From assembly GCA_013166835.1 (NCBI GenBank), contig JABLTI010000039.1:1-23162 (forward strand): 23,162 nucleotides of DNA. Direction: 5' to 3'. Below the pieces are notes generated by a model. The model was not told the DNA's origin. It did not search any database and saw only the letters and a program-made list of their open reading frames with translations. A program made the translations under genes and the position numbers. Source of the stretch: Promethearchaeati archaeon. GTDB lineage: Archaea > Asgardarchaeota > Heimdallarchaeia > JABLTI01. The number at the start of each line of letters is the position of its first letter. Positions within the stretch are counted from its first letter, which is position 1. Shown one piece after another: positions 2,096-12,328 of this stretch.

Positions 2096-3271
2096 TCAGA
2101 ATTTTGGAGCAGGTAGTTCTTTAACTTTCTTGGGTTTAGCACGAATCTTAGCTTTCCCTTCAGCATCAATTGAATCTGTGTACTCTACTTTGCCACTTAG
2201 AACTGCATAATCTTCGATTATGATCTTATCTGCAAAGACGTTTCTCGCTCTGCTTCTTTCCAACATCTCAAGTTCAGATACGTAGAGATTCTTAGCTCTA
2301 GCTCGTTCATTTAATACAACAGATTCTGCTTGAACTATACCGACAAGTTTTCCTCTTCTGGCAACACTGATAGATTCAGCTTTGATAAATTTGGCTTTAA
2401 TCTTTTTACCAGCAGAAAGTTTCTCTGCTTCAAGTTTTTTACCAGCTGAAACACTGAAACCAGCAGATAAACTACCACTGAGGGTGATATTTGATTTGCC
2501 ATGTACTCTCATACCTGCACTAGCTCTCTCACCTTTAGCGTCTTTTTTCAAGATGACACTCATGCCAGCGCTTAAGTCACCAAATTCAATAATATTCTTT
2601 GCTTTAACTTTCATACCAGCACTAGCTTTTCGTACCTTTGTTATACCAAATAGCTTGACACTCATACCAGCACTAACACTTTCTATTTCAGTGTCTTTTT
2701 TGGAGATCACTGACATTCCAGCACTGACTTTTCCGAATTTTCCAGAGGTAACTACAACTCTTGCTCCTGCACTAGCTTTCTCAACATTACTTATACCATA
2801 TAATTTGACACTAGCACCTGCAGAAATTTTACCAACAGTATGATCACCATTTAGTTTTACAATAGCTCCTGCACTAATTGAATCGGCTTCTACTTTTCCA
2901 TGTAGTCTTACAATAGCACCAGCGCTAATTTTATCAGCTTTAACATCTTTTTTAACATCAACAGTCATTCCTGCTGATACATCTTCAGCTTCAAGAGAAC
3001 CAGTTACAAGTAATTTCTTTTCAGCTTCAACTTCTCTTTTAACTTTGAGATCACCGAAAATCTTTACGCTACCTTTTTTGCTTTCAATGCTTAGAACTTC
3101 AAGATTTCCTTTACACTTGAAGCCACCTTTATTCTTAATCTTACCATGAACAACAATTGTTTTGTTCTCTGCAATTATTGTTGCACCTTTTCCGATTTTC
3201 ATGTCTCCATCGACTTCGGAGAATTTCATTCGAGCTCGATTCTTGACATGAACTCTTTTTTTAGCTGCCAT
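2096..3271 (-). CDS. Long bactofilin-like beta-helix protein, paralog B (SAG repeats, Lys-rich)
   Basis: Colinear with paralog A; 12 ~17-aa repeats with SAG turns. Start moved from 3283 to ATG 3271 (MAAKK) because GGTGA precedes it and promoter spacing then matches paralog A. Confidence 0.75.
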   Translation of the reverse strand: MAAKKRVHVKNRARMKFSEVDGDMKIGKGATIIAENKTIVVHGKIKNKGGFKCKGNLEVLSIESKKGSVKIFGDLKVKREVEAEKKLLVTGSLEAEDVSAGMTVDVKKDVKADKISAGAIVRLHGKVEADSISAGAIVKLNGDHTVGKISAGASVKLYGISNVEKASAGARVVVTSGKFGKVSAGMSVISKKDTEIESVSAGMSVKLFGITKVRKASAGMKVKAKNIIEFGDLSAGMSVILKKDAKGERASAGMRVHGKSNITLSGSLSAGFSVSAGKKLEAEKLSAGKKIKAKFIKAESISVARRGKLVGIVQAESVVLNERARAKNLYVSELEMLERSRARNVFADKIIIEDYAVLSGKVEYTDSIDAEGKAKIRAKPKKVKELPAPKF

Positions 3272-3315
3272 ATATTTCACCATATGTTAAATTACTAAAT
3301 ACAGTATAGTTTTAG

Positions 3316-5684: not shown

Positions 5685-5720
5685 AGGAGCAAATTTCAGC
5701 TCCTTTCATATTATTTTTTT
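5685..5720 (+). terminator. Hairpin plus T-tract between convergent fae-hps and DUF202 genes
   Basis: AGGAGC (5685-5690) / GCTCCT (5699-5704) followed by a T-rich tract. Confidence 0.5.
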
Positions 5721-6040
5721 CAATCATTAGTATCTATCTTTTCATTTTTTATTAGGTTATTCTGACTTAAAGTACTAATTGCCCTTCTAAACTTAATGAA
5801 TCTTATAATTCCAAAAATAATAACAATTAATCCTAAGGAAATTAATAACCACCCTGTCACTATAATTGCTATTGATTCTTCAAATAATTTTATTAGACCA
5901 ATACCGCCAGCTCCAAAAGCTAGTGCAGTTCTAATATATGCTAAAAATGTTCTTTCATTCGCTTGAGCAGTTCTATCTACTGCGAGGTAATCTCGTATAA
6001 TCATTTTTTCTGGATCTATTTCATATTGTTTTTTACTCAT
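5720..6040 (-). CDS. DUF202 / YidH-like small membrane protein
   Basis: 'RDYLAVDRTAQANERTFLAYIRTALA' signature followed by two hydrophobic helices. Confidence 0.88.
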   Translation of the reverse strand: MSKKQYEIDPEKMIIRDYLAVDRTAQANERTFLAYIRTALAFGAGGIGLIKLFEESIAIIVTGWLLISLGLIVIIFGIIRFIKFRRAISTLSQNNLIKNEKIDTND

Positions 6041-6168
6041 AAAGAATCACTCAAATTTCTCTAGTATTTAGGGATTCATGTTGAAAATCCTAACTAATTA
6101 AGGGATTTATCAGCTAAAAAATTTTTACTTTGAAGTAATATTTCCACAAGAAAAATAGGTCAATTAAT

Positions 6169-6259
6169 AATTAACACAATGGCGTTAATTTTGGTAGGAT
6201 ATTTTACGATTGTAAAATAGTAATTATCACATTGGTGTTATTGATACGTTCTTTAAATA
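6169..6259. promoter_or_regulatory. Cluster of three AC-N4-G(T/C) palindromes followed by a + strand TATA box
   Basis: AATTAACAC-AATG-GCGTTAATT (6169-6190), TATTTTAC-GATT-GTAAAATA (6200-6219), AATTATCAC-ATTG-GTGTTA (6222-6240); TTTAAATA at 6252-6259. Confidence 0.45.
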
Positions 6260-6277
6260 TAGTGTCCAATATAAAAT

Positions 6278-6438
6278 TGGCGAAAAGAAAGCCTCCGAAA
6301 AGACTCCAACAACATGGGATTGGTATTGTTGTTGTGTGGATTTCCGAAGGAAAAAGACTACAAAAGAATATTGCAGTACTCTTTCAATCTATATGGGTCT
6401 GCAAGACGCTTGAAATAGTCGTCTTTTCGCCACTTTTT
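6278..6438 (+). ncRNA. Candidate structured non-coding RNA (three-way junction, possible kissing loops); family not recognised
   Basis: 11-bp closing stem 6278-6288/6422-6432; two internal arms; complementary loops 6317-6323/6384-6390; TATA 26 nt upstream; T5 at 6434-6438; about 41% GC versus about 26% in 6061-6240 (hand count). Confidence 0.55.
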
Positions 6439-6468
6439 ACTTTGGTAAAAATAATTTTTGAAAGACTA

Positions 6469-8175
6469 TTATTTGATCATTTTCTGCAATTCTTTAAAGC
6501 TTAAGCAATTAAGGATATGTTTCTTCTCACACCAACTTCTTCGTGCGACATTGATTCCCCATTGCATGAAATTATAATCCTTGACATAATGAGCATCAGT
6601 TCCGATATAAATTAGTGCCTTCTCTTTCAAATCAAAAACCAGATGATCGTCAATATCTTGTCTATCAGGTTGAGCATTTATTTCCAGCCAAGTATTTGTT
6701 TGCGTGCATTTTTTAGCAATTTTCGAGAAATTTAAACCATAATCTGCTCTCTTACTAAACATTCTACCAGTTGGATGTCCTATAGCGTTTACGTATTCAT
6801 TATCTAAAGCAGTGAGTATTCTTTGAGTCATTTCTTCTTCAGGTAAATCGAAATGGGAATGAATGGAAGCAATTACAAAATCCATTTCCTTCAAGATTTC
6901 TTTTGAAACTTCTATTTCGCCTGTTTTTATTATATCAATTTCTAATCCATGGAGAACGTTAATTTCAACTTCTTCTACTAATTTTCCTAATTCCTTCTTT
7001 TGCTTTTGTAGTTTTTCTTCATCAAGAGGATTGTAAATTTTATTCTTACCGTAGTGATCTGTAATTGCTACATATTCCCATCCTTTTTGTTCTGCTCCTT
7101 TAATCATTTCTTCCAGAGTAGCTTTTCCATCAGAATAATTAGTGTGAGTATGCAAATCACCTTTTATATCCTCCATTGTGATTAATGCCGGTAATGCATT
7201 CTTCATTGCAGCTTCAATTTCTCCACGATCTTCACGTAATTCAGGAGGGATAAAACACATGCCTAGTCCTGCATACACATCTTCTTCGGTTTCACTTGCA
7301 AGAAGCTTACTTTTGTCTTTGTTATATAATCCATATTCATTTAGCAGCAATTCTTTTTTCTCAGCAAGAGTTCGGAGTTTTATCGTATGACTTCGAGCAC
7401 CGGTGGAATACAACAACCCAGCGCCATCTGATTCTTCTTCCAGAATACGCAAATCAACATTCATATTATTGAACAATTTGACAGTTGTTTTCAATTTTCC
7501 AGTGGCAATTACATCTATGACTTCTTCCATCTCTGTGAAATACTTCATAGCTTTCTCAAAATTCTCTGGTTTCCCAATTGCATGAAAATCTAAATCTCTC
7601 ACAGTAGATTTTCGTCTCCGAAAAGATCCCCCAATATCTACTTTTGTTAAGAGCTTTGATTGCATTAGCTTCTCTCTTAATCCATAAGCTATTTTTTCTA
7701 TTTTTGGTAAAGCTGTTCTTCCTCTTTTGAGGAATTTAATTGCTCTTTGTATTTTCTCTATTTTTCCTTCAGTAAAGCTGGATAATTTTGACAAGGCCCC
7801 AGTTTCAATCGCTTCTTCTAATCCGGCAATTGACTTAATTCCTAATTCCTGATATAATCTTCCAGCGGTTTTCCCTCCGATCCCTTCAACCCTCATTAAT
7901 GAAGTAACTTCTAACGGAACCTCTTGAGTGAGTTTTTGTAAATAGTAACTATCACCAGTTTTTACAATAACATCAATTTTAGTACTGATTGCATCACCAA
8001 TCCCGGGAATATCCTTTAGTTTTCCCTCTTCTACAAGGACACTGATGTCTTCTGTAACTAAATTAAGAGCTTCTACTGCTTTTCTATACGCTCTTATTTT
8101 GTAGACGCTTTCACCGATTATCTCAAGAATATCAGCAATCTGTTTTAGTTTTAAAATAACTAATTCATTCATCAT
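6469..8175 (-). CDS. polX: DNA polymerase X family protein with C-terminal PHP domain
   Basis: HhH motifs (IPGIG, VEGIGGKTA), GSFRR..TVRDLD, VDLR, FIPPELRE; PHP motifs DLHTHT.YSDG, ITDH, SIH, GHPTGR, GTDAH. Start likely ATG 8175 rather than GTG 8199. Confidence 0.95.
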   Translation of the reverse strand: MMNELVILKLKQIADILEIIGESVYKIRAYRKAVEALNLVTEDISVLVEEGKLKDIPGIGDAISTKIDVIVKTGDSYYLQKLTQEVPLEVTSLMRVEGIGGKTAGRLYQELGIKSIAGLEEAIETGALSKLSSFTEGKIEKIQRAIKFLKRGRTALPKIEKIAYGLREKLMQSKLLTKVDIGGSFRRRKSTVRDLDFHAIGKPENFEKAMKYFTEMEEVIDVIATGKLKTTVKLFNNMNVDLRILEEESDGAGLLYSTGARSHTIKLRTLAEKKELLLNEYGLYNKDKSKLLASETEEDVYAGLGMCFIPPELREDRGEIEAAMKNALPALITMEDIKGDLHTHTNYSDGKATLEEMIKGAEQKGWEYVAITDHYGKNKIYNPLDEEKLQKQKKELGKLVEEVEINVLHGLEIDIIKTGEIEVSKEILKEMDFVIASIHSHFDLPEEEMTQRILTALDNEYVNAIGHPTGRMFSKRADYGLNFSKIAKKCTQTNTWLEINAQPDRQDIDDHLVFDLKEKALIYIGTDAHYVKDYNFMQWGINVARRSWCEKKHILNCLSFKELQKMIK

Positions 8176-8328
8176 AGTTACCAGTCGCCTATTTAACACT
8201 CAATTCATTCTCGTTAGAATTTGTTTAAAAAGTAATAAAAATCTACTGATGTTCTAATTTCAGCTGGATTATTTAAATAAAAAGAAAATAAAAAATAGAT
8301 GAGATAAAGAAAGAAAGAAGCAAATAAT

Positions 8329-8745: not shown

Positions 8746-9483
8746 ATGATGGGGTTAGGAAAATTGACTGAGACCGAAACTGAAACTATCTTGAGTCCAT
8801 ATCTCTCAGAAGAAGTTGTTCTAAAAAAGCGAACACCTTTTCATGCTCAGTGGGAGATTTTTAAGATTAGGTCTTGGAGATTCTTAACACATCATCCAGC
8901 TTGTAGTGAATACAAAAATCATTACTTCTCAATTGGACCTCTTAATCTTTGCATAGGTTGTTTTTCAATTTATTCTGCCATTTTATCTTACTTGGTGCTT
9001 TTTTTGACAGTTCCATCGGTTTTTCGCTTCAATCCCTATGTTATGTCAATTTTACCATTCGCTGGTTTTGGATTGGCAATTTTTCATCTAATATTTAAGG
9101 TCAAAAATAAATGGATTAAGTCTCTCTTTAGATTCTCAGCAGGTTTCGGGATAGCTGCTTATGGTGCTTTAGCGATAGCTACTTTTACAGAATTAAAAGA
9201 ATGGTGGTTAGGAATTATTTTACTTGTAATTCTATTCGCAGGAAATCAGCTTTATGGTATGAGTCGAGGTAGATCAGCTAACCGAAAAGAATGTTCGGAT
9301 TGTCCTTTACATAAAGCCAATCCACCGTGTCTGCCTGAAAAGAACACCAATATTAAAGTACGAAAAGTTTATGCAATAATAGAAGAAGAATTACAGAATC
9401 TTCAGGAAAAAAGAGAGAAGAAAAAAATTGAATCGGAACAAGAAGAACCGAAATCAGAAGAAGTTGTAACGGCAAAAACTTAA
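8746..9483 (+). CDS. Four-TM membrane protein with Cys/His clusters (loosely DUF2085-like), putative metal-binding
   Basis: HHPxC-x5-H-x9-CxxC before TM1; four hydrophobic segments; CxxCPxH-x5-C after TM4; charged tail. Confidence 0.75.
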   Translation: MMGLGKLTETETETILSPYLSEEVVLKKRTPFHAQWEIFKIRSWRFLTHHPACSEYKNHYFSIGPLNLCIGCFSIYSAILSYLVLFLTVPSVFRFNPYVMSILPFAGFGLAIFHLIFKVKNKWIKSLFRFSAGFGIAAYGALAIATFTELKEWWLGIILLVILFAGNQLYGMSRGRSANRKECSDCPLHKANPPCLPEKNTNIKVRKVYAIIEEELQNLQEKREKKKIESEQEEPKSEEVVTAKT

Positions 9484-9544: not shown

Positions 9545-10057
9545 TTGTCAGAGGAAGAAAAATTCCCAGAATATGAAGAAGAGGTTCCTTCTACACCGGA
9601 TGAAAAAGAACCAATTTTTGATCAGACTTATGCAGAAATGCAACCAGATAGTACAATAGAACCTGAAGTAATTGTTGATGAGGAAGCCAAGAAACGTAAA
9701 AGAAGAAGATGGATATTAATTAGTATTTTTGGCATTTTAACACCAATTCTTCTGATTGCTGGAGTATTAGTTTTTGTTGGATTAGCATTAGCTGGTGCAT
9801 TAGAATCATGTGCAGTGCAATGTTGTCAAAACTGTGCTACTTCTTGTTCTGAATCATGTGCAGCATCATGTGATGAATCCTGCAATAATTGTTGTAGTAA
9901 TGCATGTGAAAACTCCTGTAATTCTTGTTGTGAAAATTCCTGTAGTAGTACTTCTTGTTGTTCAAGTAGTGTTAGAAGAATAACAATGTTAGAAATACTA
10001 CAAAATGCAAAGAATCAGTTGATGTGGCTCATTTATCTTGTGTTTGGAATTCAATAG
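9545..10057 (+). CDS. Membrane protein with a CxxxC-repeat (17 Cys) segment
   Basis: Acidic N-terminus, KKRKRRR, long hydrophobic helix, Cys tract, hydrophobic C-terminus; GAGGGT SD before TTG. Confidence 0.8.
   Translation: MSEEEKFPEYEEEVPSTPDEKEPIFDQTYAEMQPDSTIEPEVIVDEEAKKRKRRRWILISIFGILTPILLIAGVLVFVGLALAGALESCAVQCCQNCATSCSESCAASCDESCNNCCSNACENSCNSCCENSCSSTSCCSSSVRRITMLEILQNAKNQLMWLIYLVFGIQ
9809..9961 (+). repeat. Degenerate 12-bp-period coding repeat (Cys every fourth codon)
   Basis: 12 Cys codons in exact 12-nt register; near-duplicates TGTGAAAACTCCTGTAAT / TGTGAAAATTCCTGTAGT. Confidence 0.8.
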
Positions 10058-10627: not shown

Positions 10628-12328
10628 TTGTCAAAGTCTGCAAAAAAGATTGGATTCGTATTAGGGATTTCTAGAGATCAAGACACTATTATTGTACGTT
10701 TAGATGAAAATGTTGAGCATGAAGACATTGTAGAAGGAAGTTTTGTTAGTATCCCTCTAACGAATGGCAACACTATCATTGGACGTGTCAGTAACATTCG
10801 TGCTGAAAATCCTCAACTCAGTGATGAACGTTATGCAAAGTTTTGGATGGATAGGCTTAGACGATCCTTAGAATCACGTTCTATGTTGGAATTCACAGAG
10901 TTTCATGTTGTGGAAGTTGTTCTTGTTTCTAATATTTCAAATGATGGAGATCTCTCAACTCCAAATGCTTGGATTTCTCCAGGATCAATGGTTTTCGAAT
11001 GTAGAGACGACTTATTGGAATTAGCAGTATTTGGCAAAAAAAGGGGAGTAATGAGTATAGGATTATTCGCAGAACATTCAGGAGAAATAAATGTAAAATT
11101 AAATCCAAACATCCTAGGTTCTGATGGATTAGCAATTTTTGGTTCAAGAGGAAGTGGCAAATCCTATGCAGCAGGAGTGATAATTGAAGAACTCGCAGAA
11201 TTCGGACTACCAACTCTGATTGTTGATCCACATGGGGAGTATTGGGGACTTTCACACACCGCTGGACCGAAAGGCACTGCATCATTACCAAAATACTTCG
11301 TTCACGTGCTATATCCGAATAAATATCCTCCAAGATATTTTGAATTAATGAATAAACTAGCAAAGAAATTTGATGTAAATATCAAAATTGAACCTGTAAC
11401 TATGTTATTCTCAGAAATCAGCACTTCCGAAATGTTTGGTTTTATGTATGATTTAACATTTACTCAGAAAGAAAAAATAGAAAATACTTGGTATGCAATT
11501 AGGGATGCATTTGGCTCTGCAGTCTGCTACGATATTGATGGTTTCCTTGGTTTTGGTCTCGAGAATAATATCATTGATGGAGCTAGTCGTAGACCAATTA
11601 TTAGAAAGCTTGAAGTTTTTAGGAAGATGGGATTCTTCACTGAGTTAAGTGGTTCAATTTGCCATCTGTCAGGTTCAATCATACAAGAATATGATAGCAA
11701 TTACAAAAGAATTGAGACAAGTGAGAAAAGTAAGGATATGTCAACACTTGCAAGTGTTACAAGTCACTTTGGACCAGAAGTCATTACAATTCTAGATGTT
11801 AGTCAGCCTTTCTTGGATGAACGAGCTAGAAGAATCTTCGTCTCAAGTTACTTGAATCGTTTACGAAGGACTATGGAAAAGAAAGAAATCCAACGGGCAT
11901 TTCTCTTAATTGAAGAAGCACATCGATTTATCCCAATAGGAGAATCTCCAACAAAACGAGCAATAGAATGGTTCGCAAGAGAAGGAAGAAAAATGGGGGC
12001 AGGATTAGGGATTGTAAGTCAAAGACCAAGTGGTCTTGACCGAGATATTCTTTCTCAGTGCAATTCAAAATTAATTCTACGAATAACAGAACAATCAGAT
12101 CTCCTAGTTGCGAAGGATATTCTAGCAGGTTTTGCTGAAAGATATATTGGATTGCTTCCTTATCTCGAGCAAGGAACAGGTGTTTTATCTGGAGCTGCTC
12201 TGAGGATACCAATTTTAGTCACATTTCGAGAAAGAAAATCCTCTTCTAAGTACGGAGAAACAGTTTCTCTAGTAGCTCATCCTGAAGACAAAGTAAAATC
12301 TCGAGATGCAGAGAAGAAAAATTGGTAA
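10628..12328 (+). CDS. HerA/FtsK-superfamily ATPase (HerA-like, DUF87) with N-terminal HAS-barrel-like region
   Basis: Walker A GSRGSGKS, IVDPHGEY, Walker B LLIEEAHRF, arginine finger AREGRKMG, SQRPS, SQCNS. Confidence 0.9.
   Translation: MSKSAKKIGFVLGISRDQDTIIVRLDENVEHEDIVEGSFVSIPLTNGNTIIGRVSNIRAENPQLSDERYAKFWMDRLRRSLESRSMLEFTEFHVVEVVLVSNISNDGDLSTPNAWISPGSMVFECRDDLLELAVFGKKRGVMSIGLFAEHSGEINVKLNPNILGSDGLAIFGSRGSGKSYAAGVIIEELAEFGLPTLIVDPHGEYWGLSHTAGPKGTASLPKYFVHVLYPNKYPPRYFELMNKLAKKFDVNIKIEPVTMLFSEISTSEMFGFMYDLTFTQKEKIENTWYAIRDAFGSAVCYDIDGFLGFGLENNIIDGASRRPIIRKLEVFRKMGFFTELSGSICHLSGSIIQEYDSNYKRIETSEKSKDMSTLASVTSHFGPEVITILDVSQPFLDERARRIFVSSYLNRLRRTMEKKEIQRAFLLIEEAHRFIPIGESPTKRAIEWFAREGRKMGAGLGIVSQRPSGLDRDILSQCNSKLILRITEQSDLLVAKDILAGFAERYIGLLPYLEQGTGVLSGAALRIPILVTFRERKSSSKYGETVSLVAHPEDKVKSRDAEKKNW

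Follow-up and report, generated by a model that had tools for sequence, protein, structure and literature searches.

Purine-riboswitch-type aptamers (RF00167 and its relatives) combine a closing helix P1 with arms that lie side by side, a kiss between the loops of these arms and conserved junction strands. The same traits, with the kiss as a proposal, are found in a Y-shaped RNA at positions 6278 to 6438 on the + strand of the window, by which we mean the whole 23,162-nt stretch of Heimdallarchaeia DNA that was analyzed. The Y-shaped RNA is about twice the size of these aptamers, however, and its arms of about 60 nt carry internal loops whereas those of the aptamers measure about 7 bp; its junction is A-rich, it lies outside of any 5' UTR, it has a promoter and a terminator of its own, it occurs as two to three paralogs per genome, and it has no match to a purine aptamer model. 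In the Alu 5' domain of the SRP RNA, G-C pairs connect the loops of two hairpins. The likeness to the Y-shaped RNA is that of two helix-closed hairpins whose loops are, or in the Y-shaped RNA would be, joined by a few G-C pairs, but the Y-shaped RNA is a separate gene with far longer arms, no UGUNR-type motif was seen in it, and the Archaea_SRP model does not match it. The pRNA of phage phi29 is built from a closing helix, a three-way junction and two complementary loops, and it shares with the Y-shaped RNA a size of 120 to 170 nt, paired ends and loops that co-vary among relatives. The pRNA loops pair between molecules, however, and the pRNA gene belongs to a phage and neighbors the packaging genes, whereas the Y-shaped RNA is chromosomal and syntenic and has arms of equal length. 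In a broader sense, the Y-shaped RNA also resembles raiA, OLE, ROOL, GOLLD and the Y and vault RNAs, all of which are stand-alone, strongly covarying and lineage-restricted RNAs whose function cannot be read from gene context; the Y and vault RNAs share in addition the pairing of the 5' end with the 3' end, a terminal U-tract and the presence of several paralogs. None of these RNAs is similar to the Y-shaped RNA in sequence or at the level of models, the Y-shaped RNA is smaller than OLE, ROOL and GOLLD, and, unlike the Y RNAs, it resides in a genome in which no TROVE/Ro protein was found.

Heimdallarchaeia are usually placed nearest to eukaryotes among the archaea, and to our knowledge almost no noncoding RNAs are known from them beyond rRNA, tRNA, SRP RNA and RNase P RNA. 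We consider it very probable that the Y-shaped RNA is the transcribed, structured product of a real gene and belongs to a new family. The family would represent a new RNA class that combines strong covariation with a conserved promoter of its own and two to three ancient paralogs per genome and that is unlike the catalogued families. What is new is a family without a relative at the level of models, and an unprecedented working mode is not claimed. The RNA is small enough for probing, pull-down and structural work on in vitro transcripts, which requires no culture of the organism, and the identification of its partner would expose either a new archaeal ribonucleoprotein (RNP) or a new sensing RNA. 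Its importance is limited by its distribution in one order that is known only from sediment metagenome-assembled genomes (MAGs).

Architecture and fold

The RNA gene extends over about 155 to 160 nt from P1 to a T-tract (6278 to 6438, + strand), as supported by the Y-shape of the minimum free energy (MFE) structure, by a score of 174.9 bits with the covariance model R2 and by a metatranscriptome insert from 6297 to 6429. P1 pairs TGGCGAAAAGA (6278 to 6288) with TCTTTTCGCCA (6422 to 6432) over 11 bp, a pairing found both in the fold and in covariation; compensatory changes occur in 4/10 pairs of this helix 1, and 95.8% of its cells are paired. Among the three junction strands, J1/2 is AAG (6289 to 6291), with at most one departure among 26 copies at each of A6289, A6290 and G6291; J2/3 is AAAAA (6351 to 6355), in which A6351, A6353 and A6355 are nearly invariant across the 26 copies; and the third is the single nucleotide G6421. 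Arm 2 (6292 to 6350) is composed of a lower helix, an internal loop, an upper helix and a 12-nt loop (6315 to 6326), with compensatory changes in 7/8 pairs of helix 2 and 8/8 pairs of helix 4. By our reading its internal loop carries a tandem GA/GA, and A6303, G6318 and G6339 are further unpaired bases of this arm that depart at most once among the 26 copies. Arm 3 (6356 to 6420) rises from a GACUA/UAGUC base through two conserved internal loops (6361 to 6370 with 6405 to 6415) and an upper helix to a 13-nt loop (6382 to 6394). Helix 7 of this arm shows compensatory changes in 9/10 pairs, the 2-bp helix 6 covaries (AU 11, GC 10 in the 26-copy alignment), and A6363, A6370, A6406, C6407 and A6415 in the internal loops are nearly invariant in the same copies.

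An initial annotation, made from the letters alone, had placed P1, the arms, the junctions, the loops, the TATA box and the T5 tract, and all of them were recovered at the same positions when the sequence from 6000 to 6700 was re-read. The three-way junction described there is also what RNAfold returns, both as the MFE structure and as the centroid. The + strand folds at -49.1 kcal/mol compared to -33.1 ± 4.0 kcal/mol for 200 dinucleotide shuffles, none of which was as good (0/200; z = -3.99). Given that the minus strand folds equally well (-49.6 kcal/mol; z = -5.07), folding energy alone has no power to pick the strand. The GC contrast that had been noted for the element holds as well, at 40.6% in 6278 to 6432 versus 24.9% in the upstream intergenic region (6041 to 6277).

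Distribution, paralog groups and covariation

A search at the DNA level gave one copy in the RNA's own assembly (G000; 3.56 Mb, 260 contigs, 85% complete) and one full-length copy, at 76 to 94% identity, in 9/10 genomes of the same genus. The covariance model R1, built from the nine group-A orthologs (see below), revealed second and third full-length, divergent copies in several genomes; the second copy of the own genome lies beside folP at C227:14115-14284 and scores 93.5 bits with R1. With R2, which was rebuilt from 17 copies, one to three copies were found in 12/12 species genomes of one family, which is the whole order in the collection, for a yield of 26 convincing matches and one weak match. 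The records of these relatives are titled Candidatus Heimdallarchaeota, and all of the genomes are MAGs with a completeness of 64 to 92%. A gapped pattern of the family led to 16 metagenome contigs, 16/16 of which were confirmed at 110 to 176 bits, and eight rows (seven distinct) among the metagenome matches are new sequences.

As far as was searched, this previously undescribed family is confined to one Heimdallarchaeia order; most genomes searched beyond the order are incomplete, and the result there is to be read as "not found" rather than as absence. Under strict filters, with few candidates scored per genome, R1 found the family in 0/71 genomes of the other families of the class and R2 in 0/149 other genomes of a phylum sample. 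Lax filters applied to five genomes of other families gave a best E-value of only 0.46, and the folP loci of other families, of which twenty syntenic ones were scored with the filters off, reached at best 15.7 bits (E 0.08). The number of viral contigs matching the gapped pattern was 0.

By our reading of the alignment and of neighbor clustering, the family comprises three paralog groups (A, B and C) that differ from one another in their syntenic setting and keep it. Group A, to which the locus at 6278 to 6438 belongs, is present in 10/12 genomes. A DUF202 gene lies upstream at 9/9 of its loci, fae-hps lies upstream at 7/9, about 600 nt before the RNA, and polX lies downstream at 6/9; in the window, polX (NF006375, 461 bits) occupies 6469 to 8199 and is convergent with the RNA gene. 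Group B, found in 4/12 genomes and in metagenome relatives, sits between two family-4 glycosyltransferase genes. Group C, the folP group, is present in 12/12 genomes and lies 12 to 30 nt from the 3' end of the convergent dihydropteroate synthase gene (TIGR01496, 218.7 bits) in 10/10 genomes in which both were found; in G003 and G007 the group C copy is located at a contig end, and no folP match was found there. Downstream of each group, the next gene runs on the opposite strand, and no protein gene or protein family is common to the neighborhoods of A, B and C. The linkage of the RNA gene to polX is incidental.

The fold is conserved along with the loci. From a plain MAFFT alignment RNAalifold predicted 35 pairs, with compensatory changes at 7 of these, and the group-A orthologs, folded singly, gave the identical Y-shape in 9/9 cases. 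Canonical pairs fill 95.0% of the 1110 pair cells when the 26 copies are aligned, compared to 34.1 to 46.1% when the partners are slid by one to three columns, and two-sided (compensatory) changes occur in 30/44 pairs. None of 500 shuffles reached any of five covariation measures with the 26 copies (0/500), and the 17-copy alignment agrees, with the proviso that the alignments in question (A4 and A5) were made by fitting the copies to the model, which favors the structure, and that kinship among the copies makes the shuffle counts overstate significance. The unfitted evidence, that is, the RNAalifold result on the plain alignment and the single-sequence folds, agrees with the fitted covariation. 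The structured element suspected in the initial annotation is thus conserved in every genome of the order with strong compensatory change, all helices covarying, and from this conservation with compensatory changes we judge that 6278 to 6438 is a conserved RNA gene, beyond chance.

The two loops had been proposed to kiss through GGAUUGG in loop 2 (6317 to 6323) and its complement UCAAUCU in loop 3 (6384 to 6390), and re-reading of the DNA (GGATTGG and TCAATCT) confirmed five Watson-Crick and two G-U pairs between them. The best duplex of the own copy has an energy of -6.7 kcal/mol, which 4.2% of shuffles reach, and the nearly invariant G6318 falls within the loop 2 segment. In group A as a whole, the best apical duplex is better than at least 95% of shuffles in 9/10 copies. 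Group C is graded: 1.4 to 4.0% of shuffles are as good for L044, L038, L046 and L049, L040 and L047 are borderline (5.0 to 5.2%), L036 (6.6%) and L042 and L043 (14%) are weaker, and L039, L045 and L048 form 3 bp only (38 to 54%). Copy L033, from genus g2, has an internal bulge, GAGAGA, that faces UCUCUC, with 0.8% of shuffles as good, or 2.7% if pairing may involve the entire arm. The loop duplex of group B is not significant (5 to 43% of shuffles as good, 19 to 73% with the apical loops only); neither its apical loop nor its GAGGGAG bulge pairs significantly with loop 3, and a 4-bp GAAC/GUUC pairing is possible by our reading. Across 14 loop types, the cognate loops pair better than permuted ones, with a mean of -6.8 kcal/mol versus -4.9 ± 0.5 kcal/mol and 2/20000 permutations as good, a result behind which, through kinship of the loop types within groups, stand about four or five independent events. 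The loops of groups A and C retain a GG(G)/CC(C) core, and beyond this core the partners appear, by our reading, to change jointly (GGAUUG/CAAUCC, GGGUA/UACCC, GGGUU/AACCC). The lengths of the two arms across the copies, 59 to 66 nt versus 61 to 66 nt, are nearly equal, which fits an internal, intramolecular kiss. Pairing between the apical loops of arms 2 and 3 is supported but not proven: the proposal has support in groups A and C, where complementarity co-varies, and in copy L033, and falls short of significance in group B.

Strand, promoter, terminator and transcription

The paired columns contain 78 G-U and U-G cells versus 8 A-C and C-A cells, and because of this asymmetry, together with the conserved TATA box and T-tract, the sequence evidence indicates that the RNA is read from the + strand. 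It had been cautioned that the base of arm 2 pairs better on the minus strand; this is not supported, since the covariation at the base of arm 2 is that of a + strand RNA helix. The TATA box, TTTAAATA (6252 to 6259, + strand), lies 26 nt 5' of P1, and its TTTAA core is invariant in 9/9 group-A orthologs; the remaining copies have an A/T-rich box at an equal distance upstream. At the other end, the T5 tract (6434 to 6438, + strand) is a likely archaeal terminator, with U6435 to U6438 nearly invariant across the 26 copies. At least four T residues follow P1 in 24/25 copies in which the 3' end is present, L033 being the exception with TTTCTT, and five or six follow it in 9/9 group-A orthologs in the flank-inclusive alignment.

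A candidate upstream promoter element covers 6221 to 6251 on the + strand (about -57 to -27), where the 55 nt upstream of the group A and group C copies align without gaps. Searched with an nhmmer profile of these 55 nt, the own genome returned just its two RNA genes (6221 to 6276, E 2.3e-9; C227, E 4e-9), and the next match had an E-value of 3.4, so that no promoter regulon beyond the two genes was detected in this genome. This pattern suggests that 6221 to 6251 is an upstream element, or a regulator site, dedicated to the RNA genes.

In public metatranscriptome data, only one run contained part of 5700 to 6900, at 7% of the sampled words. The contig in question consists of Illumina adapters around an insert that matches 6297 to 6429 with 0 differences at a depth of 3.5, and the same run has zero cover over 5700 to 6296 and 6430 to 6900, a gap in the flanks that is no proof of silence, the run being stored as contigs from which ends, strand and level are unreadable. 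We take the adapter-flanked insert as a hint that a small RNA is abundantly transcribed here, and DNA carry-over is a possible source as well. The transcript expected from the initial annotation thus receives a hint from one contig, which reveals neither its strand nor its ends. The broader proposal made there, a stand-alone noncoding RNA convergent with polX, is upheld by the lack of an Rfam match, the conserved promoter and terminator, the strong covariation and this hint of transcription.

Identity and working mode

No signature of the purine and lysine riboswitches, the SRP Alu domain, tRNA, 5S rRNA or the hammerhead had been recognized in the sequence, and the Rfam scan agrees: at gathering thresholds, the 4227 models of Rfam 15 gave 0 matches in the whole window. 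A scan in E-value mode, which covered copies from all three groups, returned only matches with E-values from 0.18 to 9.9, far under the thresholds; the sole Rfam family matched twice was CRISPR-DR6, over 14 and 26 nt on opposite strands. RF00167 was not among the matches at E-values up to 10, and a purine riboswitch acting in cis is set aside on the grounds that the T-tract directly follows P1 and that polX, which comes next, is read from the other strand, so that the RNA is no same-strand 5' leader. A Ro/Y RNA was rejected given that PF05731 (TROVE) matched nothing in the own genome, which is 85% complete, while a Deinococcus control was positive. In an H/ACA guide, the position after arm 3 should read ANA, whereas GUC, GAC or GCC is found there; moreover, the would-be pocket is filled by a covarying 2-bp helix and the ends are closed by P1. 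Matches of the element to SNORA families reached E-values of only 1.4 to 4.3. The junction strands AAG, AAAAA and G differ from the CUGANGA plus GAAA core of a hammerhead, which also gave no model match, and the defining boxes of a K-turn are absent from the alignment on reading. A phi29-type pRNA is set aside by the cellular, syntenic neighbors and by the 0 viral contigs with the family pattern. The literature listings and the beginnings of abstracts contained no description of the Y-shaped RNA. One study clusters all prokaryotic intergenic regions (10.64898/2026.10.21.760802); passages of its main text are without Asgard or Heimdall, and its supplements might list the family.

The most likely function of the Y-shaped RNA, going by its conservation, is that of a rigid platform to which a protein or a ligand would bind, given that the nearly invariant unpaired bases cluster in the junction and in the loops of arm 3 and that the neighborhoods have no protein gene in common. 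The paralogs share the junction and the arm 3 loops and differ in the arm tips. On this model, the loop-loop kiss would lock both arms side by side, as in junctions of the purine-riboswitch type, and the locked scaffold would display A6289, A6290, G6291, A6351, A6353 and A6355 of the junction together with A6363, A6370, A6406, C6407 and A6415 of arm 3. The A-rich junction and the arm 3 internal loops may then form a surface for a binding protein that is encoded elsewhere, while the variable arm tips would only maintain the fold, and the RNA would be one component of a small RNP that acts in trans. We favor such a protein-binding scaffold acting in trans tentatively, as a reading suggested by the pattern of conservation that we would not yet call probable.

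A ligand could take the place of the protein. The RNA would then be a riboswitch-like sensor of pterin/folate or one-carbon metabolism in which the ligand stabilizes P1 and sets how often transcription stops at the T-tract, with read-through giving antisense RNA to folP in group C and to polX in group A. P1, parallel arms, a loop-loop lock and a conserved junction are the layout of a purine-type aptamer, group C keeps its short distance from the convergent folP in every genome with both, group A follows fae-hps, which encodes a tetrahydromethanopterin enzyme, by about 600 nt at 7/9 loci, and the opposite-strand gene downstream of all three groups would provide the target. The lack of a same-strand downstream gene, however, leaves no room for a classical riboswitch in cis, and neither the glycosyltransferase genes around group B nor the polX that faces group A is linked to pterins. 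Synteny among 12 species of one order may also reflect plain inheritance, a junction of almost pure A would be unusual as a ligand pocket, and the THF, ZTP and all other riboswitch models gave no match. We know of no case in which ligand-controlled termination has been shown in archaea, and we regard a sensor of this kind as unlikely. Its most specific form, a first metabolite-sensing RNA of Asgard archaea in which a pterin/folate-related aptamer outside of any leader gates its own T-tract terminator and doses antisense RNA into folP or polX, is very unlikely in our view; if true, a terminator-gating aptamer would be a regulatory layout without description for archaeal riboswitches. An antisense small RNA that acts in trans, with an exposed segment pairing to mRNAs, would account for an independent gene, complete with a promoter and a terminator of its own, and for paralogs with differing arm sequences, and archaeal small RNAs of about 155 nt are known. 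It is an improbable reading all the same, given that nearly the whole molecule is held in covarying helices, that the conserved unpaired bases are scattered adenines and form no contiguous seed, and that the variable loops are complementary to one another and not free. Complementary, co-varying loops fit pairing between molecules as well as within one, and the list of parts equals that of phi29 pRNA, so that the Y-shaped RNA could assemble into dimers or rings as phi29 pRNA and ROOL/GOLLD do; RNA-only assemblies have been published (10.1101/2024.12.08.627333). The near-equal arms in all copies are needed for an internal kiss and not for an intermolecular one, however, and the neighbors are cellular genes with no viral contig matched, which makes self-assembly quite unlikely.

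We consider two further explanations to be extremely unlikely. A divergent universal RNA could be disguised here: 5S rRNA likewise has a three-way junction, is of similar size and is closed where its two ends meet, and RF00001 finds it in 0/12 genomes of the order, while the SRP Alu domain offers the kissing hairpins discussed above. The arms of 5S rRNA are stacked end to end, however, and their loops are unable to meet; RF00001 is not among the matches of the element at E-values up to 10, and contig C173 of the same genome carries a better candidate for 5S. A detached Alu domain is likewise set aside by a full-length Archaea_SRP match elsewhere in that genome (model positions 1 to 317, 110.5 bits), and three divergent paralogs fit neither RNA. 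The other explanation is that no RNA gene exists and that the locus is a polX 3' UTR or terminator element, a MITE-like repeat or the 90-codon open reading frame at 6232 to 6504, each of which the initial annotation had left open. The minus strand folds equally well, as described above, and the reading frame spans the element here, as does an open frame in G006. The asymmetry between G-U and A-C cells stands against a polX 3' element, however, and polX is adjacent at only 6/9 group-A loci and at none of groups B and C. The own genome holds only two copies, one at the DNA level and one further, divergent and syntenic match of the model, which is not the picture of a MITE or a dispersed repeat; and a coding region is contradicted by stops in all six frames in 4/9 orthologs and by frame-breaking indels in the helices. 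The protein-binding scaffold remains our preferred, if tentative, reading of the Y-shaped RNA.

An observation apart from the Y-shaped RNA concerns the 5S rRNA of these archaea. The Rfam 5S model has matches in only 10/83 genomes of the class. The candidate on contig C173 has recognizable 5S motifs, and the weak 5S matches in Heimdallarchaeia read like a putative circularly permuted 5S gene.

A second RNA copy and the element upstream of the TATA box

The genome that contains the window carries a divergent second copy of the structured RNA family at C227:14115-14284 (positions 1501-1670 of locus L040), which scored 93.5 bits with R1 and 145.7 bits with R2, the two covariance models of the family. 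This copy belongs to group C, the paralogs beside folP; a dihydropteroate synthase gene is convergent with it and has its 3' end 12 nt away, and the upstream neighbor of the RNA copy encodes a HEAT-repeat protein. We also identified an element of about 30 nt that precedes the TATA box at 6221-6251 in the window and at about 1447-1477 in L040, and that is conserved between group C and group A, the paralogs at the window locus. By reading, the group C version is an imperfect inverted repeat, TTAACA-N6-TGTTA. An nhmmer search of the same genome returned no further copies of the element elsewhere. The element may be bound by a transcription factor dedicated to these RNA genes.

Variation among the group A loci was also observed. 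In L023 and L024 (the loci of genomes G004 and G005), the stretch separating the DUF202 gene from the RNA contains an open frame of about 230 codons, located some 160-850 nt upstream of the RNA, whereas the other seven group A loci have only spacer at this position; the downstream neighbor of the RNA in L023 and L024 is not polX. A weak extra R2 match in G005 (C55:247091-247212; 27.8 bits, E 0.007) is on the same contig as the group A copy of that genome and may represent a fourth copy that has decayed or diverged strongly.

5S rRNA detection and a putative permuted gene

The Rfam 5S rRNA model, RF00001, matched 10 of the 83 Heimdallarchaeia genomes at E <= 0.001 and attained its gathering score in 4 of them, with no match in any of the 12 genomes of the window's order. 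Among the five single-contig genomes in the set, G016 and G026 each gave a sole match of 31 bits, and G039, G043, and G047 gave none. Given this scarcity, and given that the positive control produced a match in 13 of 14 model organisms, standard 5S annotation fails in this class.

In the window's genome and in the closed genome G016, 5S-like signals were confined to weak matches, at C173:36992-37145 (about 1490-1670 of locus L059; 16.4 + 13.8 bits) and at about 1500-1690 of locus L057 (31 bits), respectively. By reading, the 5S 3' half (GGAAGUUAAGCC ... GGGAAC ... helix I 3' strand) is the leading part in both loci, followed by a 6-nt linker that caps helix I and then by the 5' half, comprising the helix I 5' strand, helix II, and a loop-C motif (CCGAUCCCGGAA / CAUUCCGAAC), with the whole unit bracketed by a flanking complementary stem. 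Script alignment mapped the canonical 5' half to the downstream portion of each locus and gave an ambiguous alignment for the canonical 3' half. Each locus appears to be a 5S rRNA gene in circularly permuted form. Among the publications listed by a literature search, permuted 5S is described from organelles and permuted 23S from Thermococcales, with no such case from Asgard archaea.

Other genes in the window

Three open reading frames in the window, of 395 codons (2096-3283, minus strand), 245 codons (8746-9483, plus strand), and 170 codons (9545-10057, plus strand), had no Pfam match at E <= 0.001. A HerA-like ATPase with DUF87 and HAS barrel domains is encoded at 10628-12328.
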